Virus record (IMG/VR): IMGVR_UViG_3300025141_015556
DNA length: 64,000 nucleotides
Reading direction: 5' to 3' (one strand)
DNA from: a virus
This document shows, in pieces, positions 17,934 to 64,000 of the stretch. The notes beneath the pieces are model-generated. The model did no database searches. It saw nothing but the letters and a program-made list of their open reading frames with translations, and was not told the DNA's origin. Each line of letters starts with the position of its first letter. The first letter of the stretch is position 1. Position numbers and translations under genes: made by a program.

Positions 17934-20900
17934 TTAATCAACAAATGATGCCCCCGTCCTTGTAATATTAAAGTCAAGGGCAATAAACTCGATAGCTCGT
18001 GTGGGCTTCAAGTATATCTTAGCATACATAATATTTCTATCGATTAAGTCAGCAGTCGTCGTAGTTTCATCGAGGACAAGCTTATAATCGGTAAGGCCAA
18101 AATTAGTCTTGACCGTATCCAAGAAGGGTGTCACTTGACTTGTAAATCGGTCCCACGTACTCTGAACATTGGGATCAAAGAGCAACGTTGTTGCAATCTG
18201 GGAGATTCTTTTCTTGACAAAAATCAGCATTCTTCGAACATTAATGCGATCTAGCGCAGACGATGTTACTTGAAGCGTCTTCTGCCCAAAAATCACGATT
18301 CCTTCCGCCGGGAATTTGGCAATTGGATTGACATTTGCGGCGTAGAGATCGTCTCTCTGCTTCCTTGTAAGCTGTTCGACGATGTTTACGACCGGGAGAC
18401 CCGCAGAACCCTCTGTAAGGCCTCCACGATTGAATCCGGCCGGTGCAAACCAAACTTCAGTCTTCCGCTGAGAGCTAGAGAACGTCCCCAATGCCGGGAT
18501 AGACGGAGGTACCCAAAGTAGCTTACCATTAATAGTATCTCTGACCTGAACCCAAGGATAGTATGCGCAGCCATAGCTGGAATTTAATCCGCGTGACTTC
18601 AGGTTATTAAGGATGTCTGTTACACTCCCCACGCGACCCGAAAAAGAGTCGGTGTTTTCAGTGGTCTCCTTAAAGCCCCCCTTCAAATCGACAATCGCCA
18701 AGGCATCCGCGCGATCCTCACATGTATTAATCAGATGCGTCGTGAGACCCTCATTTGTGATACCAGGAACGGTCGCAAGATTCATTTCTACTACCTCTGG
18801 GTCGGCAATTGCATCAATGGCTCGTTTAATAGAGTAATTGGCATAATAACCAAACTCAGTGGAGTCCTCCAAAGCGGTATTGTCAAAAGGCTCTGGTTTT
18901 CTTATATCAAGCCCATCAAAACCACCATGAAGCGGGACCGTAAACCTATCAAATCCTTGATTGAGCGGCTCTTCCCACGAACTAGACACCGCGGTCATAG
19001 AGGCGCCGGCGGCTCCGGGGCCTCCGGTCGAAAGAATTCTACGAGAACCAGAAACCCATGCCGCATTAAGCGACCCGGTGAAAATAAGATCGTCTAGTGT
19101 AAATGGCACCGATAATTCACAACCAGCCGCAGTAGAAGTAAACTGATCTGTGAGCACCCCGCCGCGCGGCATCAAAAGATCGAGGTTAGATTCGCCGAAT
19201 CGAACAGATCCGGCAGTACGCCCAGTATTAAATCCGAAATAAGCATCAGTAGTATTACCCAAACCTCCGTCTGAACCGCTTTTACGCAGTGCGGGTGCTG
19301 GGAATTTAATCGATCCGGTAAAGTCTGCCGATCGGAAGCCTAGGCCGTGATTAACCTGCGTACCTGAGCCGAATAGCAAATAGGAGCCGCTCAGTCCCGT
19401 AGCTACGCCGGCGACGGAGGGGCCAGGAAGTGCCGTGGTATTTGCTAGGGATGCGGCATCAAATGACGAACCAGAAGCGGCAATATAAGATCCTAAATCT
19501 GGTGAATTGCCACTTAGGTTAACAGAAACATCTGCATATTTAACGACCCCAAGGAACCCAAAGGGCAGGTATTGTGTGCTTCCACCATGGCCGTTCGCCA
19601 GTTCTATACGAATATATCGCGATTGATTATCAAATTCGCCGTATGTTACATATCTCTTAAGAGTGTTGTCCCACGAAGTACGACGATCTCCAATTTTTCT
19701 CTTTACATAATTTAAAGAATTCTCATTCAGGTTGCAATCATTAAATTGTTCCAACACCCGAACAACATTATCGGAATCTTTTAGACTTCTCACCACTATA
19801 GAGAAGCTGCCCCACGGGTCCGCGTCAGGATTGGGGGGCGCCGCAATATCTTCAATTGAAATTTTCAAATTACGATTTGTCCAGTCGCCGGGCTCATTAA
19901 GAGCATGCAGTTTAAACAATTTTTGCATGGCGGTGGCATCGTAGCTTCCAGAATCAGTGGTAATATCTTGAGAAATTATCCACGGAGTTTGTGCCGACAG
20001 TAGTGGCATCGCAAAACTAGCGCCATTGCCTCCGGCGGCTTCGAGAAGGGGCAAAAGAGCACCCCAATATTTATTTGAAGAGCCGGCTGTAACTGTATCT
20101 TTCAAATGTCGATCAAATGTCTCGCCGACCCAATATTTTGTTACAGTATCAGATGTTGCTGTATTCGAGAGCTGAGGGTTGGTGTTCAGTGCCTTTCGAA
20201 TATACCGGGGGGATTCAGAATTAAAATTAACAGATGTTAGTAAATCCTTGCTTCCTTGATAATTTTTGATATACATCTTAAATTCATAATCCGAACTTGC
20301 AACGGATGATTCAACCATGGCACATGTACCAGTTACAACAGCCGAATCATCTCGGCCGGCCAAAGTACCACTTAAAGCAAAACTAGACTGATTGGTGCTA
20401 GAACTATTTGCATAAAGAATGGCAGCCAACGCTCCAGTTGAAACATAGTTGCTCATGCCGCCAGATAATCCTGTAAATGTGACATTGGAACAATTTAATG
20501 ATTGAATTAAGGTATTGCTAGCGTACCCGACGAGGCCGCCGGAAATGGAAGCGGTAACATTAATGCGCGGTCCTGAGACGCTACCGCTGCTAACAACGAA
20601 CTGATGTGTTGCGGCGCCATCGGATGTAGTGGGGCCGTTCGAGGTACCGTCGAGGTCTCCGCCTAGCGAACACGAACCAAAGACTTTGGGATAATCGGTT
20701 GTGGGCGCTCCGGTGGAGGTCCCCACATATTTGGTACCAATCGATCGAGTCATTGAAATCATCAGTTCGTGGAAAAAATGATCTGCCAGCGCCGTCGCGC
20801 CGGCGGCCGTCGCCACACCGCCCGAGACAAGAATTGCATTTTCTTCGTGCTGGCCAGCAACGCCTTGGGTGTCCACCCCGTCATCACTTCCGCTGGGCGA

Positions 20901-21443: not shown

Positions 21444-21500
21444 TCTTAGATATCTCCCTGTTTACTGCGTATGCATATGTTATGCAAGTTAATTCATTAA

Positions 21501-21508
21501 TAAATAGT
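21501..21508 (-). promoter_or_regulatory. Putative late promoter element ACTATTTA (tail sheath)
   Basis: Intergenic copy of the recurring motif. Confidence 0.65.
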
Positions 21509-21527
21509 ATTAGATAGCTCGAAAGAC

Positions 21528-22965: not shown

Positions 22966-22969
22966 CTAA

Positions 22970-24235
22970 CTACCCTACATAGATGCCGCCGGGGACATCG
23001 GCCAATAGTTTATCTGCATTGTCAGACATTTCTGAATCCTTCGTGGAAAGGTTCACATATGTCAGTTCATCAAATGTTGTCTTAAGCTCCTCTCTCAATG
23101 CGTCTTGTTCCGCTTTCGCTTGAGAAAGCAATTCGGCATGGTTTAGCGTCACCGATTCCCCTGGAATTGGCACTGTATTAAATTTACCACGAATTTGTCC
23201 CAGCATTTCTTTTGAAAGAGCCAGCGCAAAGCGGCGGATCCATTGTTTTCCAATCGAGTTAATACTGTTATAATCAATATTTTGAAATGGAAGTGTGTTC
23301 ATGTTGTTGATGCCCAAAACTCCTGTATCTACACCAGAATCTGTTTCATCCCATGGGTCTTCATCGACCGTAAAATAGAACCAAAACTTTGTTGGGCTTG
23401 CATCCTTTGGTGGAGGGAAAATTCTTAGTTTGTTGTTCTTAATTTCATATGACCAATGAGAAACCCTGGTGTTAAGCGCATCCTCATAGTTCATTGCTTG
23501 AAGTTTATTCTGCCAAACGGGAACAATATCAAATGTTGAATCATCTGCATACTGTCCATACGTACGCAAGTTGCCAACAACGCTGAACCCGCCATAATAC
23601 CCGTAAAAGCGCCACATAGCGTTCGGTGATTTATAAAATACTTTTCGAATTATAATTCTCTTCTTGCCAACTTTCCCATAATATTCTTGACCAGTCTCGG
23701 TGGCAGCAGATTCTGATATTATTGTTTGTATATCATAATCTTGCTGATCGGTTACAGTATCAAAAGAACCTGAATATATGTTTTTTGTGCCCCCCAGGCC
23801 GGCCTCTGTAATGGCGTGGTCGGACACCCTCCTAACGTGTCCATAATCATATTTTGGATATCTTAACTCAATATTTAAATCAGCCAGGTCGTCTCCAGAA
23901 ATGACTTGGCCATCGTGAGTAAACGAAGCAGTGGTGTGTCCAAGAAAACTGGAAAGAGAATTTTTTGCTTGGTGTACATTAACTATATAAGAATATTCCA
24001 AACAAGCTTCTTCGTAGGCTGCATAAACGTTTCCCTCTGTTAGCTCAATATCTAATACGTCTCCGCCCAATTTTTTATATGTATAGGCAACCTGATCTAC
24101 AGACCCTGATTGGAAAAAAGAATTTAATACGTATACGCCAAACGGCAACGAAGAAGAAATATTTCCTAAAGTGCCAGTTATCGGTAATATATTGTTATTT
24201 GTGGTTGAAGCCGGACTAAGTGTAGGAAGCGCCAT
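22970..24235 (-). CDS. Neck/head-tail adaptor protein (gp13-like)
   Basis: KLGGDVLDIELT, WIRRFALALSKEMLGQIRGKF..PIPG..VTLN. Confidence 0.8.
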   Translation of the reverse strand: MALPTLSPASTTNNNILPITGTLGNISSSLPFGVYVLNSFFQSGSVDQVAYTYKKLGGDVLDIELTEGNVYAAYEEACLEYSYIVNVHQAKNSLSSFLGHTTASFTHDGQVISGDDLADLNIELRYPKYDYGHVRRVSDHAITEAGLGGTKNIYSGSFDTVTDQQDYDIQTIISESAATETGQEYYGKVGKKRIIIRKVFYKSPNAMWRFYGYYGGFSVVGNLRTYGQYADDSTFDIVPVWQNKLQAMNYEDALNTRVSHWSYEIKNNKLRIFPPPKDASPTKFWFYFTVDEDPWDETDSGVDTGVLGINNMNTLPFQNIDYNSINSIGKQWIRRFALALSKEMLGQIRGKFNTVPIPGESVTLNHAELLSQAKAEQDALREELKTTFDELTYVNLSTKDSEMSDNADKLLADVPGGIYVG

Positions 24236-24254
24236 ATTATAATACTCCTCATTT

Positions 24255-24262
24255 TAAGTAGT
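24255..24262 (-). promoter_or_regulatory. Putative late promoter element ACTACTTA (second copy TCTATTTA at 24273-24280)
   Basis: Intergenic, between the capsid terminator and the neck gene RBS. Confidence 0.55.
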
Positions 24263-24278
24263 ATAACTATTATAAATA

Positions 24279-28350: not shown

Positions 28351-29970
28351 TTATTCCTCGACACCTAGTTCAACATAAGTGGTGCTGGGATTAAAATAAA
28401 TTACATTTGCCACATCGGTTGCATAACCAACGACCCTCACATAAGCGTTCCCGCCCCCGTTTTCGTGTTTGCCTGTATCGGGGAGACCGCTGGTCATAAA
28501 GGATTTGTGCGCAAAACTAGAACTACAAACATATACGGGGCCCCCTTTTACAAATGACTCAGAGAACCACGTATGAGCATCAAAATAGCCACGAACTAAC
28601 ATTCCATTCGAATTAGGGTTGCTACCAATAGAAATTGCAAGAAGTTGAGTATGACCGCTTCCTGTAGCAGTCGCGGACGCCGAGGTCCATGTGCCAGCGG
28701 TATTCAGATAATATAAGCCACCCGCTTCCAGAGTGGTGGTGGCTGTGCCTAAATATAAGACCTCTCCGCCGCCCGTATCATTAGAAAGGTTTATTGGATT
28801 TCCGGCGCCGGTATGATGTACACTGAATGAAACTTTAGGCGCCGTAGTGTTAACACCGACTTTAGCAGAACCAGCAGTCGTCGCTCCGCCGACGGCGGTG
28901 GGGCCCACCAGGGTGGTTGTATCGCCACTAAATACAGCATTCCCAGCGATAGTCAAACCAGCCGCGCCAGAAAAGGCGCCTGCTGCTGTAATGCTGCCAT
29001 TTGCTGTCACCAAATTTTGACCGCTGACGGCGCCGGCACCAGAGACAGTGGTTCCAACAATTATAGAGCCCCCAATAATGCCGTTCCCAGAACCAGATAT
29101 GGCGCCGGCAGCGCTAATGCTACCATTGCGTAACGTCAAACCAGCAGAAGCAGATATGGTGCCATCAGATTTAATCGTCCCGCCGCCATTTCCATCGCCA
29201 TAGCCATTTGCAATATGCAAGTTTTGTCCAACTATATCACCAGATGCGCTTATGTCAAGTGAAGCGGTAATGGAACCAGAGGCCTTGATTGCAGAAGCGC
29301 GCGACGAGAACAAGGTTTCCCCACCAAAAGTGGATCCCAGACCGGCACCATAATCACCACTAGAGGAAAAATAGGCGCCGGCCACCCTATTAGCACCTGA
29401 AACGGCCGTGCCAGCAACCACGGTTGTGTTCACCGCCAAATTTTTCCCTTCGATAAGTTGGGAGGCAGAAACGTTATTACCTGCTATCACATTCGCCGCA
29501 CCGGAAATAACTCCCGTATTGGTGATGGAACCGTGTGCCAATGTTATACTTTGGCCCAATATTGGGCCGGATGCACTTATAGCCACAGAAGCAGTGATTG
29601 ACCCCGAGGCCTTGATTGCAGAAGCGGGCGCTGAAAACAAGGTTTCGCCGCCGAAAGTTGAGCCCAAACCAGCACCATAGTCGCCGCTAGAGGAGAAATA
29701 GGCGGCTGCCACCCTATTGGCACCTGAAATAGCTGTGCCGGCAACCACAGTTGTATTTACTGCCAAATTTTTCCCTTCGATAAGCTGGGAGGCAGAAACA
29801 TTATTGCCTGCTATCACATTCGCCGCGCCAGAAACAACTCCTGTATTGCTGATCTTGCCGTGCGCCAATGTTATGTCTTGGCCTAATATTGGGCCAGAGC
29901 CAGTAATACTTCCATCTGCCTCTATGCTACCTGATGCCTCAAAAGATCCAGTTTGAAATTTATAAGCCAT
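28351..29970 (-). CDS. Repeat-rich fibre protein (head or tail fibre), paralogue 2
   Basis: Gly/Ser/Ala-rich repeats (ASGSITAS, ISGA), VGVNTTAP fibre motif, C-terminal GGLYYL...VRVVGYA...IYFNP domain. Confidence 0.7.
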   Translation of the reverse strand: MAYKFQTGSFEASGSIEADGSITGSGPILGQDITLAHGKISNTGVVSGAANVIAGNNVSASQLIEGKNLAVNTTVVAGTAISGANRVAAAYFSSSGDYGAGLGSTFGGETLFSAPASAIKASGSITASVAISASGPILGQSITLAHGSITNTGVISGAANVIAGNNVSASQLIEGKNLAVNTTVVAGTAVSGANRVAGAYFSSSGDYGAGLGSTFGGETLFSSRASAIKASGSITASLDISASGDIVGQNLHIANGYGDGNGGGTIKSDGTISASAGLTLRNGSISAAGAISGSGNGIIGGSIIVGTTVSGAGAVSGQNLVTANGSITAAGAFSGAAGLTIAGNAVFSGDTTTLVGPTAVGGATTAGSAKVGVNTTAPKVSFSVHHTGAGNPINLSNDTGGGEVLYLGTATTTLEAGGLYYLNTAGTWTSASATATGSGHTQLLAISIGSNPNSNGMLVRGYFDAHTWFSESFVKGGPVYVCSSSFAHKSFMTSGLPDTGKHENGGGNAYVRVVGYATDVANVIYFNPSTTYVELGVEE

Positions 29971-31460
29971 TTAGTTTTCTATCCTTTTCATTAGAATACC
30001 ATCCAGCTCGTGCCACTAGTAATTAGTTGCACAGATGCTCCCGGTGTTGTTAAATATATCTCTCCGGCGCCATCAATATTATCGCCCGGATAGTACGGTG
30101 TAATAATTTTTACATTATGATTCATATGGTAAGGGGTGAATTTACCAACAGCGGCTCTCTTGATAAAGAAACAACTCCCCGACCTAATATCTTCTGCACC
30201 AGTTCCCAACCTTGGTAGTTCCAAGGTTATAACGCCGCCGCCAGAGCAATTAATGTACATATCGCCATGCTCAGGCTTCAAAAACCCAACTTGGGCGGCG
30301 TTTATTGTCCCAGTGGGCTTTACATTATATTGGAAAGTGGCGCCGAGGATCTGGCCGTACTCGTTGATAATTTCGTTATTGTTGATTGTCAGCGATTGTC
30401 CAACTAGGGAGCCGGCTCCTGAAACATTAACTAACGAAACTATATTACTTCCAGTGATTGACCCCGAAGCTTTGATTGCAGAGAATGGCGCTGAAAATAA
30501 TGTTTCACCGCCGAAAGTGGAGCCCAAGCCAGCGCCATAATCACCACTAGAGGAGAAATAGGCGCCTGCCACCCTATTGGCACCCGAAATAGCAGTGCCA
30601 GCAACCACAGTTGTATTCACTGCCAAGTTTCTACCGAGTACACCAATAGAAGCAGAAACATCATTACCTGCTATTACATTAGCAGCGCCAGAAACAATTC
30701 CTGTCGCACTAATAGAGCCATGGCCAACTACTAGATTTTGACCGCTGATTGTGCCGGCACCAGAGAGCGTGCTTCCAGCTACAATACTGGCAGCGCCAGA
30801 AACAATTCCCGTATTGGTGATGGAACCGTGTGCCAATGTTATACTTTGGCCCAATATTGGACCGGATGCACTTATGGCCACAGAAGCGGTAATAGAGCCA
30901 GAGGCTTTGATTGCAGAAGCGGGCGCTGAAAATAATGTTTCGCCGCCGAAAGTGGATCCCAGGCCAGCACCATAATCACCACTAGAGGAGAAATAGGCGG
31001 CTGCCGCCCTATTAGCACCTGAAATAGCCGTGCCGGCAACCACAGTTGTACTTACTGCTAGATTTTGACCGCTGATTGCGCCAGCACCAGAGAGCGTGCT
31101 TCCAGCTACAATACTGGCAGCGCCAGAAACAATTCCTGTCGCACTAATAGAGCCGTGGCCAACTACTAGATTTTGACCGCTGATTGCGCCAGCACCAGAG
31201 AGCGTGCTTCCAGCTACAATACTGGCAGCACCAGAAATAATTCCCGTATTGTTGATGGAGCCATGTGCCAATGTTATACTTTGGCCCAATATTGGACCGG
31301 ATGCACTTATGGCCACAGAAGCAGTAATGGAGCCAGAGGCCTTGATTGCAGAAGCGGGCGCTGAAAATAATGTTTCGCCGCCAATAGTAGAGCCCAGGCC
31401 GGCGCCATAGTCGCCACTAGAAGAGAAATAGCCGGCCCCAATTTTGGCAGCACCAGAAAT
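29270..31460. repeat. Long imperfect direct repeats shared within and between the two fibre genes
   Basis: Module anchor at about 31429, 30994, 30559 (435-bp period) and 29699, 29372 (327-bp period); identical block GTGCCAATGTTATACTTTGGCCCAATATTGG occurs three times. Confidence 0.9.
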
Positions 31461-31826
31461 AGACGGTGTCGTCCCCACCACGGGGCCAGCGCCTATTGAT
31501 ATTGTTCCAGTAAACTGATGGAGATCGTCCGCGGTATCCCCAAACTTTGAAGCGCCGCTTGAAGAAAATACAGTAACGTGTTTGTGAGATAAAGTGGTAA
31601 CATACATCCCATGGGCAAATATTGACCCAGAAACATCTAGAGTGCCTGTAAGTTTTAGTGTATGGTGGTCGGTAACGGTCGCAGATCCGGTAGGATCCCC
31701 AGAAGACGTCAAAAAGACAAGACGGTTGCTACCGGTAAAATAATTATCGTCTTCTAGATACTGTAAAGATCCAGTTGGACCACTCCCTGTGGAAAGGTGA
31801 GCGCCTACGTATGCCCAGCCACCCAT
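29991..31826 (-). CDS. Repeat-rich fibre protein, paralogue 1
   Basis: SSGASKFGDTADDLHQFTG, three copies of YFSSSGDYGAGLGSTxGGETLFSAP, C-terminal ITLELP...IDG...W domain as in long-fibre proteins. Confidence 0.7.
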   Translation of the reverse strand: MGGWAYVGAHLSTGSGPTGSLQYLEDDNYFTGSNRLVFLTSSGDPTGSATVTDHHTLKLTGTLDVSGSIFAHGMYVTTLSHKHVTVFSSSGASKFGDTADDLHQFTGTISIGAGPVVGTTPSISGAAKIGAGYFSSSGDYGAGLGSTIGGETLFSAPASAIKASGSITASVAISASGPILGQSITLAHGSINNTGIISGAASIVAGSTLSGAGAISGQNLVVGHGSISATGIVSGAASIVAGSTLSGAGAISGQNLAVSTTVVAGTAISGANRAAAAYFSSSGDYGAGLGSTFGGETLFSAPASAIKASGSITASVAISASGPILGQSITLAHGSITNTGIVSGAASIVAGSTLSGAGTISGQNLVVGHGSISATGIVSGAANVIAGNDVSASIGVLGRNLAVNTTVVAGTAISGANRVAGAYFSSSGDYGAGLGSTFGGETLFSAPFSAIKASGSITGSNIVSLVNVSGAGSLVGQSLTINNNEIINEYGQILGATFQYNVKPTGTINAAQVGFLKPEHGDMYINCSGGGVITLELPRLGTGAEDIRSGSCFFIKRAAVGKFTPYHMNHNVKIITPYYPGDNIDGAGEIYLTTPGASVQLITSGTSWMVF

Positions 31827-31832: not shown

Positions 31833-32291
31833 TTAAACCCCTACGCTGCCGGTCCAGTTCGTATAGCTAGCGCTTACAGGGTCTGGCGATATACTAGGAT
31901 TGTTGATCGCCCCTTGATTAATAAATGTTAGGCCAGCCACAACAATAGCATGGTTAGAACCGCTTATCCACACCTCTGTTAATTTTAGATCAAGTGGGCC
32001 TACTTGGCCGGGGCCCGTGGTGGTACCAGAGGCGGGGCACAAAAAATACCCTGTATTATTATGAAGCTCGGCTTCGAGCGAAGCAGAAGAAAATCCCACA
32101 CGCAGTTCCGAAGCGCCTTCGTTCTGAATCATAACCCACTTGGTTACATTAGGAAATTGTATTTTAACAGGGCCGCCTACATTTCCACAGTTTACAGCAC
32201 CCGTAACGAACGGTTTTCCTGAAACTTGATAAGACCCTACATTTTGTAATCCAGCTCTGTATTGATAAGTTGGGTTCGATGGGTGTGTCAT
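31833..32291 (-). CDS. Small virion structural protein (possible capsid decoration)
   Basis: GLQNVGSYQVSGKPFVTG, FPNVTKWV, beta-rich; late-type motif upstream. Confidence 0.6.
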   Translation of the reverse strand: MTHPSNPTYQYRAGLQNVGSYQVSGKPFVTGAVNCGNVGGPVKIQFPNVTKWVMIQNEGASELRVGFSSASLEAELHNNTGYFLCPASGTTTGPGQVGPLDLKLTEVWISGSNHAIVVAGLTFINQGAINNPSISPDPVSASYTNWTGSVGV

Positions 32292-52511: not shown

Positions 52512-55280
52512 TTATACCAAAATTTCGAACATCGTGTGGGGAGCCTCCGACATATCAATCCCCAAATTATCCAAGAAGTTTATTAAGTTTTCTCTATATA
52601 CGTCTCCTACAAGCGGCGGCGGGGAAGGCCTATTATCAAAGATGTATATAGCCTCCTCTATTGAGGTGATACGATTTACCCTTTGGGAATATGCTAGTCC
52701 AGTGTACTGCGCTGAGCCCGTCCAGAAGGTGAACGCGTTCTCGGTAGCCGTATTAAAAATCTCGCTGATCCGGTCCCGGACAGCCCATTGTCGTTCGAGG
52801 AGAGCATACAACTCAGCCTGGGTCCCCTCCGGGCCATATGGCTCATCCTTGACGTCTCCGCCCGGCAAAGTTACCAACGTTGGCAGAGGAACATTCCATG
52901 AATCTGGCATAGCGCCGCCATTAATATTGTTGTTTACACCAACGCCGTCCTGAAGCCTTACGAAGACTTGATCGAGACCGACGGACGCGACGCGGCCGAC
53001 CGAGTGGCTCGTGTCGCCCTTGAAAACAAATTTTCCACTTTGGTCCGGATAACCCCATCCAGTATCTTCGGCCTCATTTATATAAATATTGGCATTCAGA
53101 TCTGGTAGAACAAGATCTTGCTCTGTTTCCTTATAGAAGCCTAAAGCGTTTCCAACTGCTTTCCCCTTTCCAAGTTCTTCTGGTGCACGCGGATCCTCAT
53201 AAGAAATCCTATTTCCAACTATCAATTTAATCGTTTTAATATCATATTGATATTTGACGCCATATAATATTTGTGAATCGATATATTCTATAAGATTGGC
53301 ATTGTCATCATTTGGTATATAAAACGTTTGAACCGGAGTGTGTCGATGTATGTCGCTTAACGGAATAGACAGAAGGTCGGTCGGGACTCTGCGCTTTTCA
53401 ATTTTAAACATAAGTGTTTCTGAATAGCAGTCGTCGCCGTTCCAATATTCCTCTATGGTCCTCATCATCTCTTTCCGCAATTGGTTTCCCAAGGTGATCT
53501 CAGACCAGTCCAGATCCGATAAATTAGTATGAATATCCGAGGGGTCCGACTCGTCGATAGCTTGAAATTCGAATATGCCATCGTTGTTGGTGTCTTGGTA
53601 ATATGAAGAATCAACCAAGTATGTGCCACGGGCTCCTTCGTCGTTGAGGCTGTACGATGGCGCCACAAACTCTACACGTTCGGTATTGTACTGGTTATTA
53701 AAGGTACCAAAATTACTGCCACTGGTAAGGTCTAGCCACTTCTTTACCCAATTGTGATAGAAGTCCATCGTCCATAAACTAATTGGCGCTGATCCAAGAG
53801 TTTCCTTTAAAAAGCCTGTACCATCAAGTGAACGAGTTTTGTTAACGGTGCCATCCGGCATATTATTATCAATAGACGCCTCACATGCGATTTGTTGCTC
53901 GGGCGACTCAATCTGATCATTGATGCCCATAAGCCCATCGATATCGACTCGAATTAAATTTGTTATAAAGTGATCCCACAAATTATAATCTTTTAATTTT
54001 TCTCGAAAAATATTATCCCTAGGGGGCGCGCTGTTCGCGAGGCGCTGGGGCATATAGTTAGAAGGAGTATCTGTGCCGCCTAGGCCTATTTGAATTTTTA
54101 TATACATGGGCAAACGATTATAATAAGGCCTTCCGCTATTATCCAAATAGCTCTGGGGTCCTAAAATCGATAAACTACGGGGCCGAATACAAATATTACT
54201 ATATCTTGCGTCAAATATCGCCTGGACGTGGTCAATGGTGGACCCGGGAGCGCCAACGCCCGCCGCCGGAGATGGCGAAGTCGCGGGCGATTCCGAGAGA
54301 GTATTCAAATATACACTAAGTTCATTATAATAGCTCATGCCGGTACCAGAGCCGCCGAGGACATTTCCAGACCAATTAACGCCCCCGTTTAAAGTAATTT
54401 GATCACGATATGCTTCAGGCAGGTCGATATTACCATTGGTGGCCGCTGTTGGATAATACATCATATAATAGTTTGGTAACGCAGTCTCATTTAAACCGCC
54501 GGTGGCGCCGAAGGTCGCGAAGGAAACTTCTTCAAAGTCTTCTTCAAGTGCTGCAATATGATGATTATAAACCATAGAAATATTTTTTATATAATTGAAC
54601 GCCGCATCTTCTGTAAGAGACGGAACAGCAAAGCGCGTAGAAAAATCTTCAAATGTGGCGGTTTGATTAAACAAGGGTGGTATCTCTTCACCTGAATTAA
54701 AGGGTCCCAATATTTGATCATCAGATGTAAACCCAGATACAAAATATTTTTTAATATACGGCCAGCCGCTGCCATCAAGCTGTTTAAGAAGCTCCTCGGC
54801 GGCCAGATTGCTTCCAAAAAGTGGACTATTGATAAGCAACTCTTTCCAGGCATCTTCACGTATGTCAAATTTATATCTTATCTTTTCACTTGCCGATGAT
54901 GACAAAGACAAATCTTCTATGAATGAGATATCTATAATGGGTCCCGTTAATATCGACTGATTAGCGCCCCCACCGACTATATCGATAAAATCGAGATTTT
55001 CAAACATTTTTTCGTATGTTTCGGTTTCGGTATTCCAATAAAAATACCTACCCATCAGGGCTAAAAACTTATCTCTTGTGATGAGGCCGATTCCCGTTCG
55101 CGGTATGCCGATTATACCCTCGGCAAGGCGCGCGGGAGTAGTGCCGGTAGTATCTTCAACAACTCTGCCATCGGGGTACCATAATTTTTTTACACTGGGG
55201 TGGGCGATGCCCGTATTGGTAAGAAAATTTAAATTTCCTCCGACGCGGTGTCTATCCATAAAAAAGATTGTATCGTACAT
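52512..55280 (-). CDS. Large acidic virion protein
   Basis: Start re-placed at MYDTIFF (55280); FKIEKR...YIDSQILYGVKYQY FN3-like segment. Confidence 0.65.
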   Translation of the reverse strand: MYDTIFFMDRHRVGGNLNFLTNTGIAHPSVKKLWYPDGRVVEDTTGTTPARLAEGIIGIPRTGIGLITRDKFLALMGRYFYWNTETETYEKMFENLDFIDIVGGGANQSILTGPIIDISFIEDLSLSSSASEKIRYKFDIREDAWKELLINSPLFGSNLAAEELLKQLDGSGWPYIKKYFVSGFTSDDQILGPFNSGEEIPPLFNQTATFEDFSTRFAVPSLTEDAAFNYIKNISMVYNHHIAALEEDFEEVSFATFGATGGLNETALPNYYMMYYPTAATNGNIDLPEAYRDQITLNGGVNWSGNVLGGSGTGMSYYNELSVYLNTLSESPATSPSPAAGVGAPGSTIDHVQAIFDARYSNICIRPRSLSILGPQSYLDNSGRPYYNRLPMYIKIQIGLGGTDTPSNYMPQRLANSAPPRDNIFREKLKDYNLWDHFITNLIRVDIDGLMGINDQIESPEQQIACEASIDNNMPDGTVNKTRSLDGTGFLKETLGSAPISLWTMDFYHNWVKKWLDLTSGSNFGTFNNQYNTERVEFVAPSYSLNDEGARGTYLVDSSYYQDTNNDGIFEFQAIDESDPSDIHTNLSDLDWSEITLGNQLRKEMMRTIEEYWNGDDCYSETLMFKIEKRRVPTDLLSIPLSDIHRHTPVQTFYIPNDDNANLIEYIDSQILYGVKYQYDIKTIKLIVGNRISYEDPRAPEELGKGKAVGNALGFYKETEQDLVLPDLNANIYINEAEDTGWGYPDQSGKFVFKGDTSHSVGRVASVGLDQVFVRLQDGVGVNNNINGGAMPDSWNVPLPTLVTLPGGDVKDEPYGPEGTQAELYALLERQWAVRDRISEIFNTATENAFTFWTGSAQYTGLAYSQRVNRITSIEEAIYIFDNRPSPPPLVGDVYRENLINFLDNLGIDMSEAPHTMFEILV

Positions 55281-55281
55281 A

Positions 55282-58200
55282 TTAGTAGCCCCCCATGCCT
55301 CCACCGCCACCAGTGCCGCCACCACCAGTGCCACCGCCACCAGTGCGACCTCCACCAGCGGCGCCGGCTCTTCTTGTGGTTATTCTACTCGATGGTCTTG
55401 CGCCCGCGCCGCGGCGGCCCCCGTTGGCAAATGAGCCGCCCGTGCCGGCGCCGGAGTCGGTGCCGAAGCGAGAAGTCCCCGTACGCCTCGGGCGTCTAAA
55501 TGTGCTCATTTTCCGATTCAAAAGTGTTTCGTCCGAGGATAAATATTCAATTGGCACGCCAATGTTTGCTTTATTGACAGTATTCTTTTTCATATTCTTT
55601 TGCAGCGCATTCAAGATATTTTTCAAACTATTGCCCGGCTCAGCCTGCAAGGAAGGATAATATTTAGGCTTTCCGATTACGAATAGCCTATTAAAAGAAG
55701 GAAGTTCATAAACATTTTTACCTTTTATAACTTTATTAGTATCGCGCAATCGACAAATTAAAGCCTGTCTACCCTGACGGGCTCTGTTTAAGTCTCCTTC
55801 ATCTAGCTGTTTCCACATTGGCGCGTTAACAACTGGGCCGTCCATGCCCGTCTCATACCCAATAAGATATTCTACTATCATACAAGAATTATATTTTGAA
55901 TCAAAGTCGAAACTTCCTTTTTCTACTAAGTCGTTCAGATTTAAGTTTAGAGCTGCCGCGGCTGGGGAGGCGCCTATGCTGGATGGATCAACCACAAGAT
56001 TATTATTAAAATCATTTGGTATGCTGTTTATTATCGAATCAACCATGTCTGTATTTAATATTTTATCATCATCGGTCGAAGCGCCTTCAATTTTCACCTC
56101 GTCGTCGCCGGGAATTGAATCTCCCGATGGACCCGAACATGCGGCGGTGCTTGTTTTATCTTCTAAAACAAAATTAGAATCAGCGCCAAAAACGTCTTTA
56201 CTATCAATATACGAAAGACACCCTTGATCTGATTCCAAAACATCTTTTATGTCTACACGAAGAGGTCGTATCGAAATACCATTAAGAGTTAATATATCAC
56301 TTTTAATAGATAAGTCCGATGCATCGTTGAATATATTTTCGCCAACTGGATCAAGTTTATTTTTCAGCAACGGCAACCCATTTTCAAAAGTCATTTCTTG
56401 CCGAGAAATTGTTTTTTGCGGAGTTACAATTGATTCAAGAGAAAGATACCCATTCACATTAATAGACGCCTCGTTAAAGCTTACCCCAGCATAATATTTT
56501 TTTTCCCGAGATATCCTTGCTCTCCATTTTGTATATCCAATAGAAGAAAGGACGCCCGGGCGTTGCTCGAGATCGTTTATATAATTTCGTCCCAAATTTA
56601 ACTGATTTGCATCGTATGCAGAAGAGAATTTATGACTCAGCACAACCGGCACCGGCGTGAAATTTCTTTGCGCACCGTGTATCTTCGAAGAAAAATTTAG
56701 AGTTTCTCCATTGGTCAATGAACAGGTGATTGGCGAAGTGCTTGATATTTGCCTTGTCAGCGTGCTTAATAGTTCCTGCACAATTTTTTCCATTATAAGC
56801 AAACTACTTGGCGTAGCGGATCTAGGATCTGTTAAAATAAGTAAATTTCTTTGCCACTCGTCGATCGATGTTCCTTGGAGTGCTTCACTTCCAAACAAAT
56901 CCAGCGTAACCCCTAAATATGAATTTACAACATCGCTCCAGCTTGTTGTTGTAGTATACAAATAATCTATAATTTTTTTATCAAAAGAATTAGTAGAAGT
57001 ATTAAATCCGGGAGAATATGTAGCCAAACGAACGTAAGAAGTATACTGAGCAAAATCAGAAGAAAGTCTATCGACGGCATCAGTTAGCTTTTTCGAAGAT
57101 TCGTCCGTGTATGTAACATATGCACGATATTGATATAGACCTGTTTTAAACCGGCCGGCCGACAAATCGGACCCAACAAATTGAAAGATTCCGGCCGGAG
57201 TGTTTGTAGATTGTAATTGTTTTAGAGAGCCATCTGTTAATTTGCAAACTAACTCCTCTTTTTGATTCCTATCATAATTGCTTGTTGCCCTTGGAGCGCC
57301 AGCAAGTTCGCTAATTCCCGGCTGCCATCGAACTCTTTTGCGGTATACGTCTATCTCGTGTATTTGTATGGCTTCAGCTAAAGTGGAATTATTATTATAC
57401 AGATAGCTGAATCTTGCGCCATCCCTAGCCACACTTGCCGCGTTAAAAGCAAAGAAGAATTTAACAGCTCCGCCAGCAATTGGACGAGCTCCTTCCTGAT
57501 CGCCGAAGAGGCGAGGCTCTGTACTAAATAAAATAGGAGAAAAATAACTCCTCTGTTTTGTGATGCCGTTTTTAAAAATATTAGATTTTGTTTGGAATCG
57601 ATTTTGTAGTCTCTCATTAATAGATTTATATTTTTTAAATTGAGTAGCCCCATTTTTTTTAAATCTAAGATCTAATATTTTTTTATTTGCAACTTGTTTC
57701 ATATTTAACTTAGAATGGGGACGAGTATGATCATGAGAGGCGCCCGCCATAAAAGAACCGGGGGGCCTCACCCTGGTGCCGGGCAGCAAAGGCGGAGGGC
57801 GATAATAGTGTACCGGGCCGGCCCAAACTTGTCCCGGTGTGCCAGAAATTGAATCTTCCAAAGTAAACAATAACGACGTGCTCGGGGGTTTGCCGCCTCT
57901 AAGTAGGCTTTCGATGCGGGTCTCTCCCATTACAAATCCTAATTTACCCTTTTCATTTGAAAGGCCGGTTGTAAACGATCCATCGTAACAGAAAGAATGT
58001 TTTTGTTGTGGCGCCAAATAGGGAGTTATTAAACATGCCAAATAGCCCTCTTTTGCAATTGATTTTGTCGGAACGCTGGTTTTTACAGACATTTTAACAC
58101 TCTCAATTGCTTCGCCGAGGTCCATGTTTATAATTTCAACATTATTATCTGTTGAGGATTTATCTATCGCATCAAAATCTAGATATATTTTTTTTACATT

Positions 58201-59510: not shown

Positions 59511-59522
59511 CTTGGTTTATCC

Positions 59523-62500
59523 CTAGTAGTCCCTCTTTTTAGAGATTTTTTTTATACGAGCACTTTCTCCTGTTATAAAAGGTTGGCTAATGCTGACCAC
59601 CGGCAAGGAAGAATCCCCACTGGTCTGAGAAGGCTTACTAATGGCGGGCCCCGCCGGATCATGCATGCTCTGGGCCGGGGGGGGCGCCGGATCATGCATG
59701 CTCTGGGCGGGGATGGCCATCTCTGGTAGTGTCTGTGTTTCTAACATTTCTCTCTCTCCCGCCGCAACATTCTTATACTGCGCAGTTGCATCTATCTTAA
59801 TTAGCTCTACTAAAGAGAAATAATCGTATGGCCAATTATAACTATATTTAGAATCATTGTTTGAAGGAACCGCGAATAGATTAGATGTAAGGTCTTTCTT
59901 GATAAGTCTAGTATAATCTTTTGCGCAACGTTTTTTAGCTTTAAATACTAACCACTCAAGGGTGTCGGAACAATTATATATATCATGTATAAGTTCGTCA
60001 TCCTCAATCGTACATCCTGATATTTGTTGTGCGGGGTCGATTGCACACTCCATATCATGATTATTGACCCTACTGGGCAAGAAGTTTTGCCACAATTGTG
60101 CCACTTCTTCTTTGGTAAAGTCCATAGTAAATTCAAAATCATAAAACAATATTGGATCAACATCATTTAACAAATAATCAAATTTTGGTGGCAAAATATA
60201 TTTGTTTAGTATATAAGAAGCTCTTCTTTCTTCCGGTGTGCTCGTCTTTAGTCTATAGAATTGTCGGCGCCCCTTCACCACTGTGAATGGTACTACTATT
60301 ACTGCCTCGCTAAGAGTCAATTTATCTTTTATTTTACCAATCGCCTTTGGCTTGCCCTCTTCAAACCCGACTAATTTTGCCAAAGACTTGGGATTTCTGA
60401 CGCTCAGTGCGAGAACGTTTGCTGGGGTGGAAATTTCAGCAAAAATTCCTGCCTTAGAGTCGGTTATTAATGCGCCCTCTTGATGCCACATGCCTTTAGA
60501 AATAATTCCACTATCACTAGTTAAATTAGTTGGGTCTGCGGGGGCTACCGTGGCAGCATTCGCAAAATTAAGTACCGGTGTTTCAAATTTGCTTTGAATA
60601 AGCCATGCGGGTTGCTCTTCGCCAGTTTCCGAATTAAATACGGGTACCCTCTGCTTAAGATTAAAACTCTCGGATACTTGCTGTGCAAAATAATACCCAA
60701 TAGCGTCGGTGTAGTAGCCCGCTTCCATGCTTCTATCATACACTTGTTCTAGATTTGTAAATATATCTTCTAGATCTGCCTTCCCTGTAAACGATGGAGT
60801 ATAAACAAAATTTACTGTACCAGTGCCATTAAAATATGCCGGCGTGTGGGGAGCAAAGCTACACGAATGTCCGGTTTCCGAGTCACCGATCGGGATCTCG
60901 GCGAGCTGGTCGCCGCGATCTAGAACAAAGGGCGGCCCAAAGGCGCTTCCCCGCTCATACATTTCGAAACTGCTTCTATCGACATAATCATAGCTGGTCG
61001 CGTGCACATCGCTCTGCGTACCTACTGGATCTAAGGTTCTATACAAAGTGAGAGTCATCGCATATTTATCGCCTTGAGTAACCCCCTCACCACTGGGATC
61101 AAAATCATTTTCTCCTACCGATTGAAAAGTGGTTAAATTTTGATTTTGCATGAAGAACTCAGTGACGCCGCATAACCAATTATCAATAGCAAGTTCATAA
61201 ATCTTGCTTCCAAGGCCGTTCCATATGGTTCCATTGTGAAGATAAGATCCGGCCGCGGCACGAACATTAATACTGTTGCCAGATAAACTAGCCGATCTTA
61301 ATCCACAATCATAAATTTTTCCTAATTCGGAACCACTAATTGCCTCGGCTTTTAGATGTTCTCTAGGTCTGTATAATGCTTCAAATGAAATTCTTTGAAA
61401 ATCGTATGCGTTTTGCGACGCATTTTTATTGCTGTTGCCGCTTAAAACTGAATTGTTGCCATATTGAAATTTGCCCTCTGGTAAATCTAATCCAACGGCC
61501 GAATCGACCGCCTGGCCGCAGTTCGCTATATCCGGCTGTGTACTGGGCTCAGAGGCGGTGCAATACGTTACAAAACTGCCAACTGCAATGCCAGATTTAA
61601 TGGTATTGTATAAGATTCCTGGTCCAAAAAGAGGATTCAACATTGCTCTAAATGCGGCCGGGTAATTGCCTGAAACATTATCGCCGTATGATTTTGAAAA
61701 CAGAGTCGCTAATTCTAAAGTTCTTTCAACTGGGTAAAATCCCTTATATGGCAAAAATTGCTTGATCGCAGATGCTTCCAAGCGCAATTTGTGTCGTTTA
61801 ATTGCAGTATTTTCTGTTGAATTTTTTTCAGCGCCGGGGCCCCGCCATTGCCGTCCATTTACATCTCCATCAATAACACTAAAATATTTAAAGAACTCGG
61901 CAGTCCCATAATGTTTATAAAAATTCTTCTCCGAACTGCTCGACAGAGCCGAGCCAGTCAAGTCAAATACATCATCATAATCGGTAAGCCAGTTTTCTTG
62001 GGCTGTGTCAACATAGTCCTCAATGTGTTCACTAATTCTAAATTCAGGAACTATTGTGTGGTCCTTACCAATAAGGCGCAAATATTGACAATAATCTTCA
62101 TATGTTCTATAAGGCGCTCTACCACTTGAAGTAAGATTCCAAGCAGAATCTCCCCCTACAACAGTATTTTCGCCGCGGCTGCCGTTATAACCAACTGGTA
62201 TTCGACTAGCATATACCGCACTAGCGGTTATATCAAGATTGCCAGATAACCCGTACCAAGCGCTATTAGATTGTAATTCGCCGGCCCCATCTTTTATTCC
62301 TAATGAAGGAGGGGTGGTTCTAAAATTGGCATGGCCATCTAGAGGCCAAATACTAGCGCTATCAAGCGAATCCTTAATCGTTGGATGACCCATGGCGGTA
62401 GTTAGAGTGGTGGTAGTTCTGTTTATTCTAAGATCATCCCAAATATTGTCGATAAGATATTGTGTTCTCGCTCGTGTTGTATTTTGATATACATTAACCT

Positions 62501-64000
62501 CGCGAGGATAAATTCTTTCTTTATATTCTATTGCCGAATTGTTTGAAATCAAAGTTTTGTTTTTAAACCACTGATATGCAGGACTCAGTTTAATGTCTTT
62601 ATGTAGATTTAGCCTATTGTTCAAACTTTCATTAGAAAAATAATCTAAGTTGTTCGCCCATGAGACACGCACATCGACGCCATTATATAAAAATAACACA
62701 GGATGATATCTTGACATGATTGGCTGCTCGGTGTATCGATAGGCCGCATTGCCCTGTAGAGAGCGTACTGGAACCACTGTTGTTCCATGTTGATGGCTAA
62801 ATATTCTAGGGTTGGATCTCACCGATAAAATGTTTCTTTCTCTTTGATATCGCGCGATAGGATGCTCCCCTGTTCTAATTCGTTTCCACATGGGATATTG
62901 ATATGGTCCATTGCGATGAAGCATTAGTGCATTAAAATTACTTGCAATGTTGTCAAATCTCACGAAAGCGGTTGCACCAGCATGGGTTGTCGGCCTCAGC
63001 GCGACCATGACATTGTTATTGGCAACCTCGGCCGCGTTATATCCCAACATATTGCCAGATGGATCTGCAGAACAGCTTATGGGCTCGTATACAATCAGGT
63101 TTAAGCCGACAAAATCGCGCGCGATACCCGGCATCGACTCGTCGGAGATCTCATGCGGCGCAATACCAGACGCACTCATAAGTGGCATGCTCGTAGGAAG
63201 ACCAGCGCTTAATTCGGTGTATCCGAATAAAACAGCGCTAGCGGTCAAAGAAGAGGTAACCCAATGATATTGCCTTGCCGATTGTGGTATCGGATGTTGA
63301 ATCCAACCGTTATCTTGAACTGAGGCGGTTATAACATCGTTTGTGAGTGCGTCATAATATGTTAGTGGATCATTAGTAAACTCTAATCGAAGTTTTGTGT
63401 TACGTTGAATCTTGTGGTATGAAGGATTAGATGATACATCCGGATGGGGATGGGCTTTAGTGCCGCGGCCATATAAATCATCCGGAGTGGGCGTAAATAC
63501 CGGATCGCCGCCAAAGCGCGTTGAATGAAGACTAAGTAGCGTTCTAAGCCCTCTCCAGTGGTTCCCTTGATCTTGTGCCTCCATGGCGGTCCATGTTTCC
63601 TCTGAACCGCTAGTCATACTAAATCCAATTAATCCTCTAACAGATAGATTTCTATAATTCAAGTTGTTATAGACGCTAAATTCTTCATGAGGCGGATCCA
63701 AATATCCCCTTGATTGTACTTCAGGCGCCGCGGGCGATATAAATCTATTAACTATGATCGTTTTATTAGAATCGCTTCCCGTTCTTTCCGGTAGTTCATA
63801 ATTTAAAGCACCACTGACATTCGATGCAGCAACCCTGCCGCTGGTGCCCGCTTCAATAAGATTATTTCCTGTAAGAGGGAATCTGCCCCTTGTGGCCGTT
63901 GTTTCAGGGTTGATGGCAAAATCAAATGATTGATCCTGCCAAAATGGATCGTTTGAAGTTCTTCCGCAAGATTGTATAATTTCATAATTATGTGTATAGT
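59523..64000 (-). CDS. Giant virion/baseplate protein, 5'-truncated by the window edge
   Basis: The frame of the 1392-aa ORF stays open from 63701 to 63998 (manual translation YTHNYEIIQSCGRT...); conserved-looking C-terminal YSYNWPYDYFSLVELIKID. Confidence 0.75.
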   Translation of the reverse strand, partial: YTHNYEIIQSCGRTSNDPFWQDQSFDFAINPETTATRGRFPLTGNNLIEAGTSGRVAASNVSGALNYELPERTGSDSNKTIIVNRFISPAAPEVQSRGYLDPPHEEFSVYNNLNYRNLSVRGLIGFSMTSGSEETWTAMEAQDQGNHWRGLRTLLSLHSTRFGGDPVFTPTPDDLYGRGTKAHPHPDVSSNPSYHKIQRNTKLRLEFTNDPLTYYDALTNDVITASVQDNGWIQHPIPQSARQYHWVTSSLTASAVLFGYTELSAGLPTSMPLMSASGIAPHEISDESMPGIARDFVGLNLIVYEPISCSADPSGNMLGYNAAEVANNNVMVALRPTTHAGATAFVRFDNIASNFNALMLHRNGPYQYPMWKRIRTGEHPIARYQRERNILSVRSNPRIFSHQHGTTVVPVRSLQGNAAYRYTEQPIMSRYHPVLFLYNGVDVRVSWANNLDYFSNESLNNRLNLHKDIKLSPAYQWFKNKTLISNNSAIEYKERIYPREVNVYQNTTRARTQYLIDNIWDDLRINRTTTTLTTAMGHPTIKDSLDSASIWPLDGHANFRTTPPSLGIKDGAGELQSNSAWYGLSGNLDITASAVYASRIPVGYNGSRGENTVVGGDSAWNLTSSGRAPYRTYEDYCQYLRLIGKDHTIVPEFRISEHIEDYVDTAQENWLTDYDDVFDLTGSALSSSSEKNFYKHYGTAEFFKYFSVIDGDVNGRQWRGPGAEKNSTENTAIKRHKLRLEASAIKQFLPYKGFYPVERTLELATLFSKSYGDNVSGNYPAAFRAMLNPLFGPGILYNTIKSGIAVGSFVTYCTASEPSTQPDIANCGQAVDSAVGLDLPEGKFQYGNNSVLSGNSNKNASQNAYDFQRISFEALYRPREHLKAEAISGSELGKIYDCGLRSASLSGNSINVRAAAGSYLHNGTIWNGLGSKIYELAIDNWLCGVTEFFMQNQNLTTFQSVGENDFDPSGEGVTQGDKYAMTLTLYRTLDPVGTQSDVHATSYDYVDRSSFEMYERGSAFGPPFVLDRGDQLAEIPIGDSETGHSCSFAPHTPAYFNGTGTVNFVYTPSFTGKADLEDIFTNLEQVYDRSMEAGYYTDAIGYYFAQQVSESFNLKQRVPVFNSETGEEQPAWLIQSKFETPVLNFANAATVAPADPTNLTSDSGIISKGMWHQEGALITDSKAGIFAEISTPANVLALSVRNPKSLAKLVGFEEGKPKAIGKIKDKLTLSEAVIVVPFTVVKGRRQFYRLKTSTPEERRASYILNKYILPPKFDYLLNDVDPILFYDFEFTMDFTKEEVAQLWQNFLPSRVNNHDMECAIDPAQQISGCTIEDDELIHDIYNCSDTLEWLVFKAKKRCAKDYTRLIKKDLTSNLFAVPSNNDSKYSYNWPYDYFSLVELIKIDATAQYKNVAAGEREMLETQTLPEMAIPAQSMHDPAPPPAQSMHDPAGPAISKPSQTSGDSSLPVVSISQPFITGESARIKKISKKRDY
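59652..59708. repeat. 24-bp perfect direct repeat (33-bp period) flanking a G8 tract
   Basis: CGCCGGATCATGCATGCTCTGGGC at 59652-59675 and 59685-59708; encodes AQSMHDPA twice. Confidence 0.9.

Follow-up and report, generated by a model that had tools for sequence, protein, structure and literature searches.

Introduction

The nearest phage precedent, by analogy, for the case considered here is the glycosylation of mycobacteriophage virions: a 2023 study by Freeman et al. in Cell Host Microbe (31:1216; cited in PMC12582341) reportedly showed by chemical means that the capsid and tail-tube subunits carry glycans on their C-terminal extensions. This report concerns a candidate of another kind, a short tripeptide that recurs in the outer virion proteins encoded by a stretch of phage DNA, IMG/VR record IMGVR_UViG_3300025141_015556. 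The whole stretch analysed is 64 kb long and called the window below; its DNA gave no match in exact searches of IMG/VR and of metagenome contigs or in a near-identity search of phage records. An earlier note on the window had proposed that the pattern [ST][GAS][ST] is a glycosylation sequon of the virion. As in the mycobacteriophages, soluble glycosyltransferases are phage-encoded, here in relatives of the window's phage, and the phage's own virion proteins are the proposed cytoplasmic acceptors. Unlike the mycobacteriophage case, the sites are candidates predicted from sequence alone, tripeptides in the interior of many different outer proteins, and the hosts are aquatic Gram-negative bacteria and cyanobacteria. 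The sites lie inside insertions rather than in C-terminal extensions of capsid and tube; the tube has none, and its family falls to 0.25 times expectation.

The nearest working analogy is the cytoplasmic Ser-O-heptosylation of the autotransporters TibA and AIDA-I by TibC and AAH. TibC modifies Ser, not Thr, acts in the cytoplasm on many Ser residues of the beta-rich TibA, and the modified residues precede small ones, Ser-313 in NSGG and Ser-322 in TSAA (PMC4358343). A preference for Ser is found here at the third position of the motif. The autotransporter enzyme, however, is a GT9-type dodecamer, whereas GT9 is found in two of the four complete relatives with the bias; the TibA-like pattern [ST][GA][GA] stands at 1.09 times expectation in the outer protein set; and the TibA substrate is one repeat-bearing beta-helix, whereas many unrelated proteins carry the motif here. 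GtfA and GtfB are two adjacent GT-B-fold proteins, GtfA being a member of glycosyltransferase family 4 (GT4), which carry out cytoplasmic O-GlcNAcylation of Ser in Ser-small-Ser contexts. An adjacent pair of such proteins, here a candidate, and the Ser-small-Ser context are common to both cases. The substrates of GtfA/GtfB differ in being long Ser-x dipeptide repeats of secreted adhesins, and GT-A, the first member of the candidate pair, shows no significant sequence similarity to Gtf1 (E 0.17-0.92).

Chloroviruses (see PMC5408694, PMC9614988) glycosylate their own capsid protein with virus-encoded soluble transferases and do not need host machinery. The best solved-structure match of GT-A is a chlorovirus protein, B736L of NY-2A (PDB 3oy2, E 1.8e-7), the match being confined to about 120 residues of the nucleotide-binding half. 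Unlike the present case, chloroviruses have a eukaryotic host and bear their glycans in N-linkage at atypical sites. Three-residue sequons for protein glycosylation, such as the putative one here, are also represented by D-[ST]-[AILVMT] of Bacteroidota and by N-x-[ST]. Those systems differ in acting outside the cytoplasm on lipid-linked glycans, and neither pattern is enriched in the outer set (0.95-fold and 1.08-fold, respectively).

Here we describe the motif bias, its extent among relatives and the sugar-transferase genes that accompany it. We favour cytoplasmic Ser-O-glycosylation of the virion as its meaning over a purely structural motif, and put the probability of that reading at roughly 0.45.

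Results

A tripeptide bias in the outer virion proteins of the window

Motif counts were compared with those in shuffled sequences, obtained by permuting either whole proteins or, to preserve the local composition, the residues inside 10-, 20- or 40-residue blocks (local shuffles). The main, de-duplicated test used 20-residue blocks, with one paralogue and the extra copies of tandem repeats removed. In the outer or late proteins treated in this way, [ST][GA][ST] was found 95 times where 43.9 were expected (2.17-fold, z 7.7); in all other proteins of the window, local shuffles predicted 23.4 sites and 14 were found. Motifs preceded by a hydrophobic residue numbered 46 in the de-duplicated outer set, against 13.6 expected, and the residue at position -1 was hydrophobic at 48% of sites compared with a background of 31.5% (p 4e-4). 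When thirteen late proteins were pooled, the broader pattern [ST][GAS][ST] reached 152 against 83.4 (z 8.0; local shuffles), and the block shuffles of all three sizes agreed with the whole-protein shuffles.

By whole-protein shuffles, nine individual proteins lie above expectation. The strongest excess is that of the 505-residue protein (16 sites against 5.3, z 4.8; 5.2 expected and z 5.0 by local shuffles), and the sheath follows the same course (24 against 12.2, z 3.7; 13.2 and z 3.3 locally), with 15 [ST]G[ST] sites where 5.3 were expected. The 387-residue protein (11 against 4.3, or 5.9 locally) and the giant late protein (18 against 8.8, or 9.0 with z 3.2 locally) are also raised. Tandem repeats inflate the 21 sites against 12 of the 539-residue fibre-like protein and are included in the 27 of its 611-residue neighbour (14 expected by whole-protein and 14.5 by local shuffles), whose repeat entered the de-duplicated statistics as a single copy. 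Local shuffles gave smaller excesses for the 152-residue protein (5 against 1.3, z 3.4), the 947-residue protein (8 against 4.0, z 2.1) and the neck protein (5 against 2.3). The capsid protein of the window, taken alone, is not significantly enriched (5 against 3.7, local shuffle), the 1075- and 333-residue proteins of the window show no motif excess, and the portal, the tube and an SbcC-like nuclease have zero or one site each.

The sites are unevenly placed within proteins. All five capsid sites fall within residues 173-293, inside an insertion. The sheath consists of a conserved core and about 690 residues of insertions, and 21 of its 24 sites lie in residues 143-830; one more, at 139-141, is at the edge of the N-terminal core, and the C-terminal core holds two, SSS at 989 and TSS at 1060. 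Counted as [ST][GA][ST], the insertions (143-830) carry 16, core residues 1-142 carry one and core residues 831-1169 carry none. Two sheath segments, 143-333 and 645-704, contain seven [ST][GA]S sites against 2.1 expected. Only 3-7 of 64 homologues have these segments, which were modelled with a predicted local distance difference test score (pLDDT) below 50; they have the look of recent gains by a sheath that was enlarged already (1169 residues, compared with 659 in T4).

Much of what the earlier note had read by eye survives this count. Every example tripeptide that it listed is present in the protein to which it was assigned, the excess over composition-preserving shuffles is confined to the outer and late proteins, the non-virion set is not enriched, the portal and tube are poor in sites, the capsid and sheath sites cluster in the insertions, and a hydrophobic residue frequently comes first. 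The terminase has three sites, against 1.8 expected.

Order and residue preference define the motif as [ST]-[GA]-Ser

The order of the residues matters. Across the thirteen late proteins [ST]G[ST] was found 69 times against 30.4 expected and [ST]A[ST] 47 times against 25.2, whereas the permuted patterns were flat (G[ST][ST] 29 against 30.2; [ST][ST]G 30 against 30.0). A scan of the middle position found only Gly (2.4-fold), Ala (2.0-fold) and Ile (1.9-fold) raised in the late proteins and nothing raised in the other proteins of the window. The pattern with Ser in the middle, SSS and the like, reached 1.3-fold (z 1.4, not significant), so that of the [ST][GAS][ST] pattern originally put forward the Gly and Ala parts stand and the Ser part does not. 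An unbiased scan over every tripeptide ranked ISG, SGS, TGS and TGT highest among those occurring more than ten times.

Further scans pooled the outer proteins of the window with those of the complete 190-kb relative G001 and those from Flavobacterium phage vB_FspM_immuto (hereafter immuto). With Gly fixed in the middle, only SGS (78 against 19.0), TGS (59 against 18.4) and SGT (41 against 18.4) stood out, and neither Asn nor Asp was raised beside Gly. Ser was preferred at the third position both in the Gly series (SGS 4.1-fold, TGS 3.2-fold, SGT 2.2-fold, TGT 1.4-fold) and in the Ala series (SAS and TAS 2.4-fold, SAT 1.1-fold, TAT 1.4-fold), and the motif was therefore narrowed to [ST]-[GA]-Ser. 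This bias towards Ser at the third position is the opposite of what beta-strand propensity would give and resembles an acceptor preference.

Several trivial origins were considered and set aside. The Ser residues of the motif use all six Ser codons in background proportions, and the bias thus acts at the level of the protein; this, together with the bias-free non-virion genes, rules out a nucleotide-level motif or a codon-pair effect. Composition and low complexity are ruled out by the block shuffles and the permuted patterns. A generic Gly beta-turn is unsupported, there being no Asn or Asp enrichment beside Gly. Repeats and paralogy are real for the 539- and 611-residue pair, but the excess persists once they are removed. 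The motif bias is real, order-dependent, expressed at the protein level and restricted to outer or late virion proteins.

The bias belongs to one phage lineage

Judged by the capsid protein, the window's phage has its closest cultured relatives in immuto (47% identity in that protein), in Microcystis phage Mel-JY01 and in Rhodothermus phage RM378. Among 64 non-identical sheath homologues from IMG/VR (37-54% identity), [ST]G[ST] was found 476 times against 209 expected, with the permuted patterns at 1.0-1.2-fold. At homologous loci the sheath family as a whole has 535 sites against 229 (2.34-fold), the neck family 109 [ST]G[ST] against 37 (2.96-fold) and the capsid family 108 [ST]G[ST] against 41 (2.64-fold); the enrichment that had been claimed for the capsid is thus seen across the family and not in the window's protein by itself. 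The hub family (0.57-fold) and the scaffold-like and baseplate families are not enriched, and the tube family has 6 [ST]G[ST] against 24 (z -3.8). The permuted patterns are also lowered in the tube family, to 0.6-0.7-fold, and for this reason its depletion is not clearly an avoidance of the motif.

In G001 the carriers are the sheath, a neighbouring 1025-residue protein, homologues of the giant, 505-residue and 387-residue proteins, and two others. The G001 homologue of the giant protein, 3688 residues long, has 46 sites against 19.7 (z 5.9), those of the 505- and 387-residue proteins have 6 against 2.2 and 8 against 2.4, and the permuted patterns stand at 1.0-fold genome-wide. The structural region of immuto holds 121 sites against 67.3 (z 7.2), and its non-structural region shows no excess. 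The sheath, capsid and neck proteins of Mel-JY01 are enriched as well.

Phages outside this group gave no such signal. In T4, 27 structural proteins, many of them beta-rich outer proteins, stand at 0.94-fold, and at 0.69-fold for [ST]G[ST]; the sheath and capsid of cyanophage S-SSM7, the phage LR756511, and the sheaths of RM378 and LR756508 are likewise without bias. T4 and S-SSM7 rule out a general trait of T4-like virions, and the bias is specific to one phage lineage, in whose head, neck, sheath and fibre proteins [ST]-[GA]-Ser reaches two to four times the level due to chance. LR756508, a 484-kb uncultured phage, has two tandem 824-residue sheath paralogues (202-209 kb), neither of which has a motif excess.

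Most sites are conserved in position, in proteins without a detectable common domain

Comparison of the carrier proteins by BLAST detected no similarity among them apart from that of the 539- and 611-residue paralogues and a C-terminal piece common to the 505- and 387-residue proteins, and profile-profile comparison (hhalign) of the capsid, sheath and neck alignments gave nothing (probabilities below 1%). With no Pfam domain in the carriers beyond the sheath's own, these comparisons reject a shared shuffled domain, Ig-like or similar, and agree with the earlier note that the carriers are unrelated. That note had also described the motif as accumulating in these proteins; instead of accumulating freely, most sites are conserved in position. 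Across homologues of 40-55% identity, conserved motif columns number 6-15 in the sheath, 6-8 in the capsid and 3-5 in the neck. Six columns of the sheath alignment contain 191 of the 476 motifs, and masking them leaves an excess of 1.56-fold.

Within the conserved columns both hydroxyl residues are retained, with Ser and Thr interchanging and the third residue mostly Ser. The middle residue swaps among Gly, Ala and Ser in several columns and is an invariant Gly in columns 434, 1328 and 592. The flanks are hydrophobic or aromatic, as in the conserved neck columns T-[GA]-[TS]-F and Y-S-[AG]-S-F. A model of the sheath built from 55 aligned sequences (mean pLDDT 72) has good confidence in the core and in those insertions that are shared, and is poor for the private segments; Foldseek matched its core to T4 gp18 and other sheaths, and its insertions to nothing solved. 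In this model sites follow strands (139, 789, 798), lie inside strands (358, 371, 709), or fall in a bridge or loop (722) and a short helical turn (498). A model of the capsid protein was unusable as a whole (mean pLDDT 52.7).

Relatives with the bias carry a soluble GT4 pair and sugar-nucleotide islands

All four complete genomes with the bias (G001, G002, immuto and Mel-JY01) encode an adjacent pair of soluble GT4 enzymes together with sugar-nucleotide islands, and GT2 genes accompany the pair in each of them. Co-occurrence of sugar genes with the bias in relatives, which the earlier note had suggested looking for, is therefore observed. The two members of the pair, GT-A and GT-B, lie at 93472-94737 and 94734-96830 of G001 and match immuto _89 (31% identity) and immuto _90, respectively; in G002 they are also adjacent. 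The immuto island (49.1-59.9 kb, 11 kb) has five glycosyltransferases, two WecE-type aminotransferases, a methyltransferase, an acetyltransferase-like 'pilin glycosylation' protein and an NDP-sugar epimerase. That of G001 (92.6-116.6 kb, about 23 kb) holds two GT4 and three GT2 genes, NeuB, a CMP-sugar cytidylyltransferase, a UDP-GlcNAc 2-epimerase, a PIG-L deacetylase, and carbamoyl-, formyl-, methyl- and sulfotransferase-like genes, a content that points to a glycan of the nonulosonic-acid type. The genes common to the two islands are the two GT4 and an upstream PD-(D/E)XK nuclease, the remainder being wholly different, and from this gene content the islands look like a variable glycan locus built of cassettes.

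In 50,697 phage records, GT-A was found in immuto, Mel-JY01, LR756508 and RM378 only, and GT-B in five only, four records of immuto and one of Mel-JY01, which are the two cultured phages that show the bias. Both genes are absent from LR756511 and S-SSM7, and T4, present in the same record collection, matched neither query. In IMG/VR, GT-B occurs in at least 571 contigs and the sheath family in at least 595; all ten large GT-B contigs tested carry the same sheath family as the window, and seven complete sheaths from GT-B contigs, pooled, have 78 sites against 45.8. No membrane helix is predicted in the sugar-island proteins of immuto or in GT-A and GT-B, which argues for a soluble acceptor rather than a lipid-linked one.

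Other writers and other uses of the islands were also considered. A phage protein kinase or a GT41 enzyme was rejected as the writer, since no Hanks-type protein kinase was found in the four complete biased genomes and no GT41 in the genomes of the biased relatives. GT9 (PF01075) matches G001 and Mel-JY01 and not G002 or immuto. Liquid chromatography with ultraviolet detection and tandem mass spectrometry of immuto DNA found dA, dC, dT and, replacing dG, fdPreQ1, with no sugar-bearing nucleoside reported (PMC10516641); given this list, it is unlikely that the immuto island serves DNA glycosylation. Two further loci lie beside structural modules. Mel-JY01 has at 4.7-13.2 kb a protein of more than 1200 residues, annotated as an FkbM methyltransferase and containing GT4- and GT9-like pieces, together with a 639-residue cytidylyltransferase-like protein, and RM378 has a UDP-galactopyranose-mutase-like gene at 112985-114136.

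Gene content of the window

PHROG and Pfam searches identified a distant T4-like myovirus module, with a gp18-like sheath, gp19-like tube, gp23-like capsid, gp20-like portal, gp21-like protease, gp17-like terminase, gp13-like neck protein and a baseplate hub gene. These matches, with that of the sheath model to T4 gp18, place it among T4-like (Straboviridae-related) structural modules. UvsX, SSB, a piece of DNA polymerase, the SbcC-like nuclease and a primase were also found, and a run of large uncharacterised late proteins extends to the right edge. Every gene is carried on the minus strand, and the G+C fraction per 4-kb block ranges from 0.38 to 0.49. Features that bear on the motif are listed in Table 1.

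Table 1. Positions in the window of the motif-bearing genes and of the tail tube; sites are counted as [ST][GAS][ST].
Feature	Position	Strand	Remarks
Tail tube, 186 residues	17321..17881	-	PHROG_4542; zero sites; internal control
Tail sheath, 1169 residues	17934..21443	-	residues 801-1167 match PHROG_23 and sheath domains of Pfam; 24 sites
Neck protein, 421 residues, gp13-like head-tail adaptor	22970..24235	-	PHROG_211; 5 sites
Major capsid protein, 624 residues	24334..26208	-	PHROG_138 at residues 368-606, second capsid profile at 7-101; 5 sites
539-residue fibre-like protein, Ser/Gly/Ala/Thr-rich	28351..29970	-	327-nt tandem repeat; paralogue of the 611-residue protein
611-residue fibre-like protein, Ser/Gly/Ala/Thr-rich	29991..31826	-	435-nt tandem repeat, 2.2 copies
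152-residue protein adjoining the fibre-like pair	31833..32291	-	no family match (PHROG, Pfam); 5 sites
505-residue protein, probably baseplate or fibre	47269..48786	-	viral relatives only; 16 sites, strongest excess of the window
387-residue protein	48795..49958	-	viral relatives only; C-terminal part common to the 505-residue protein; 11 sites
947-residue late protein	52512..55355	-	8 sites, weak excess
Giant late protein, at least 1491 residues in the window, 5' end beyond the edge	59523..63998	-	18 sites

For the 505-residue protein, a protein atlas gave uncharacterised viral clusters only. The two fibre-like proteins are 61% identical and contain 13-14% Ser and about 17% Gly; the repeat of the 539-residue protein is present in 1.9 copies, and this protein is weakly similar to the immuto 'tail fiber protein' _223. 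The pair (28351-31826) is placed between the prohead-protease region and the capsid gene, and this position suggests that the two proteins are head or neck fibres. Two pairs of long open reading frames overlap when read from the first possible start codon, 52512-55355 with 55282-58509 by 74 nt and 6193-7668 with 7532-12229 by 137 nt; their true starts are probably further downstream.

Discussion

In a single clade of phages, selection has kept an ordered tripeptide centred on Ser in outer virion proteins that are unrelated to one another, and a soluble, clade-specific transferase pair adjoining variable sugar cassettes goes with it; these observations fit an attachment signal for a phage-made glycan. 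If the glycosylation reading is right, [ST]-[GA]-Ser, usually flanked by hydrophobic residues, would be the recognition and acceptor site of a phage-encoded cytoplasmic O-glycosylation system, with the third-position Ser as the likely acceptor. The decorated parts would be those that face outward: the capsid insertion domain, the neck, the sheath insertions and the fibres. The candidate writers are GT-A and GT-B, which in the relatives with complete genomes adjoin an island of variable content that holds sugar-nucleotide enzymes and other transferases. We infer that the pair acts on proteins and that the window's phage itself carries it.

A number of observations weigh against this reading. 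The window contains no glycosyltransferase (PHROG for open reading frames of at least 100 residues; Pfam for ten motif-rich proteins), as the earlier note had also said of any modifying enzyme. GT-A homologues are present in RM378 and LR756508, phages whose sheaths are free of the bias, and GT-A alone does not predict it. Because the bias and the transferase pair are inherited within one clade, their association is confounded: both are traits of that clade, and their co-occurrence may be common descent. Sugar genes in large aquatic phages often serve other purposes. Masking every column that has the motif in at least 10% of sequences leaves 1.09-fold in the sheath, 0.73-fold in the capsid and 1.2-fold in the neck, an ambiguous result that understates any residual excess, since sites shared by descent are removed too. 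Most of the excess thus lies in a few positionally conserved columns, which a structural role explains equally well, and the modelled sheath sites adjoin strands, a placement that fits either reading. No literature report of virion-protein glycans in this phage clade was found. The sequon originally proposed therefore has on its side the order-dependent bias of the outer proteins and the co-occurring sugar genes; descent confounds that co-occurrence, GT-A occurs in bias-free phages, and the motif itself needed narrowing.

The alternative that survives best is purely structural, and we consider it doubtful, while taking it seriously. A hydrophobic-[ST]-small-Ser-hydrophobic segment would end or edge beta-strands in the insertion and fibre domains of this clade, with its two hydroxyls on the exposed face and the small residue on the packed face, and would simply be inherited, with nothing to read it. 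The conservation of most sites in position, the three columns of invariant Gly and the hydrophobic flanks are what such a role would leave behind, as is the placement of the modelled sheath sites at strand ends, in short strand-side loops or within strands; T4 lacks the insertions, and the absence of the motif there may simply mean different folds. Yet the same ordered tripeptide is enriched in proteins without a detectable common fold, and the beta-rich outer proteins of T4 (gp34, gp37, gp12, gp10, gp7, Hoc and gp18) stand at 0.69-fold for [ST]G[ST]. Beta-turns would bring Asn or Asp beside Gly, which is not seen, and the preference for Ser over Thr at the third position runs contrary to beta propensity. 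The swaps among Gly, Ala and Ser in mid-motif imply that the conserved feature is something other than a Gly-specific backbone angle, and the sheath segments private to the window's phage bear the motif as well. Even if its role were only structural, the motif would still be an unexplained lineage-specific convergence across unrelated folds.

Less probable, and in our view unlikely, is another reader of the same tripeptide: phosphorylation, acylation or phosphoglycosylation of Ser, an assembly chaperone, or contact of the hydroxyls with an outside ligand such as a host polysaccharide. The statistics show selection of an ordered Ser-centred tripeptide and do not tell one reader from another; immuto encodes its own GroEL/GroES, and carbamoyl-, formyl-, sulfo- and methyltransferases are at hand in the G001 island. 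Against these stand the lack of a Hanks-type kinase in G001, G002, immuto and Mel-JY01 and the finding that the glycosyltransferase pair is the sole candidate found to track the bias. We know of no precedent for three-residue chaperone or ligand motifs. An artefact of composition, repeats or post-hoc choice of pattern, in which Ser/Thr/Gly-rich surfaces and duplications inflate the counts, is very improbable: the pattern was picked by eye on this same window, and the 539- and 611-residue proteins are paralogues with tandem repeats, but the excess survives 10-residue shuffles and the removal of repeats and paralogues, the permuted patterns stay at about 1.0-fold, and the bias is replicated in G001, immuto, Mel-JY01 and the 64 sheath homologues, none of which was used to define the pattern.

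Taken to the level of the clade, the favoured glycosylation reading becomes a broader and still tentative proposal, which we hold with somewhat more doubt than confidence: that an abundant aquatic T4-like clade coats its outer virion with phage-made O-glycans, using [ST]-[GA]-Ser as the sequon, the GT4 pair as its reader and glycans that are swapped as cassettes. The glycan would then vary between phages, being of an amino-sugar type in immuto and of a nonulosonic-acid type in G001. The cultured hosts of the biased phages range from Flavobacterium to Microcystis, and immuto and Mel-JY01, both of which have the bias and the transferase pair, are in culture, so that the question is directly testable. 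If true, this would give phages of Gram-negative bacteria their first virion-wide glycosylation system directed by a sequon, and it would explain the large variable sugar islands that are usually ascribed to modification of the host surface or of DNA. A very common group of aquatic phages would then be sugar-coated on capsid, neck, sheath and fibres, and the coat would affect how the particles adsorb, how readily they stick to mucus and marine polymers, how well they withstand proteases and grazers, and how host defences recognise them.

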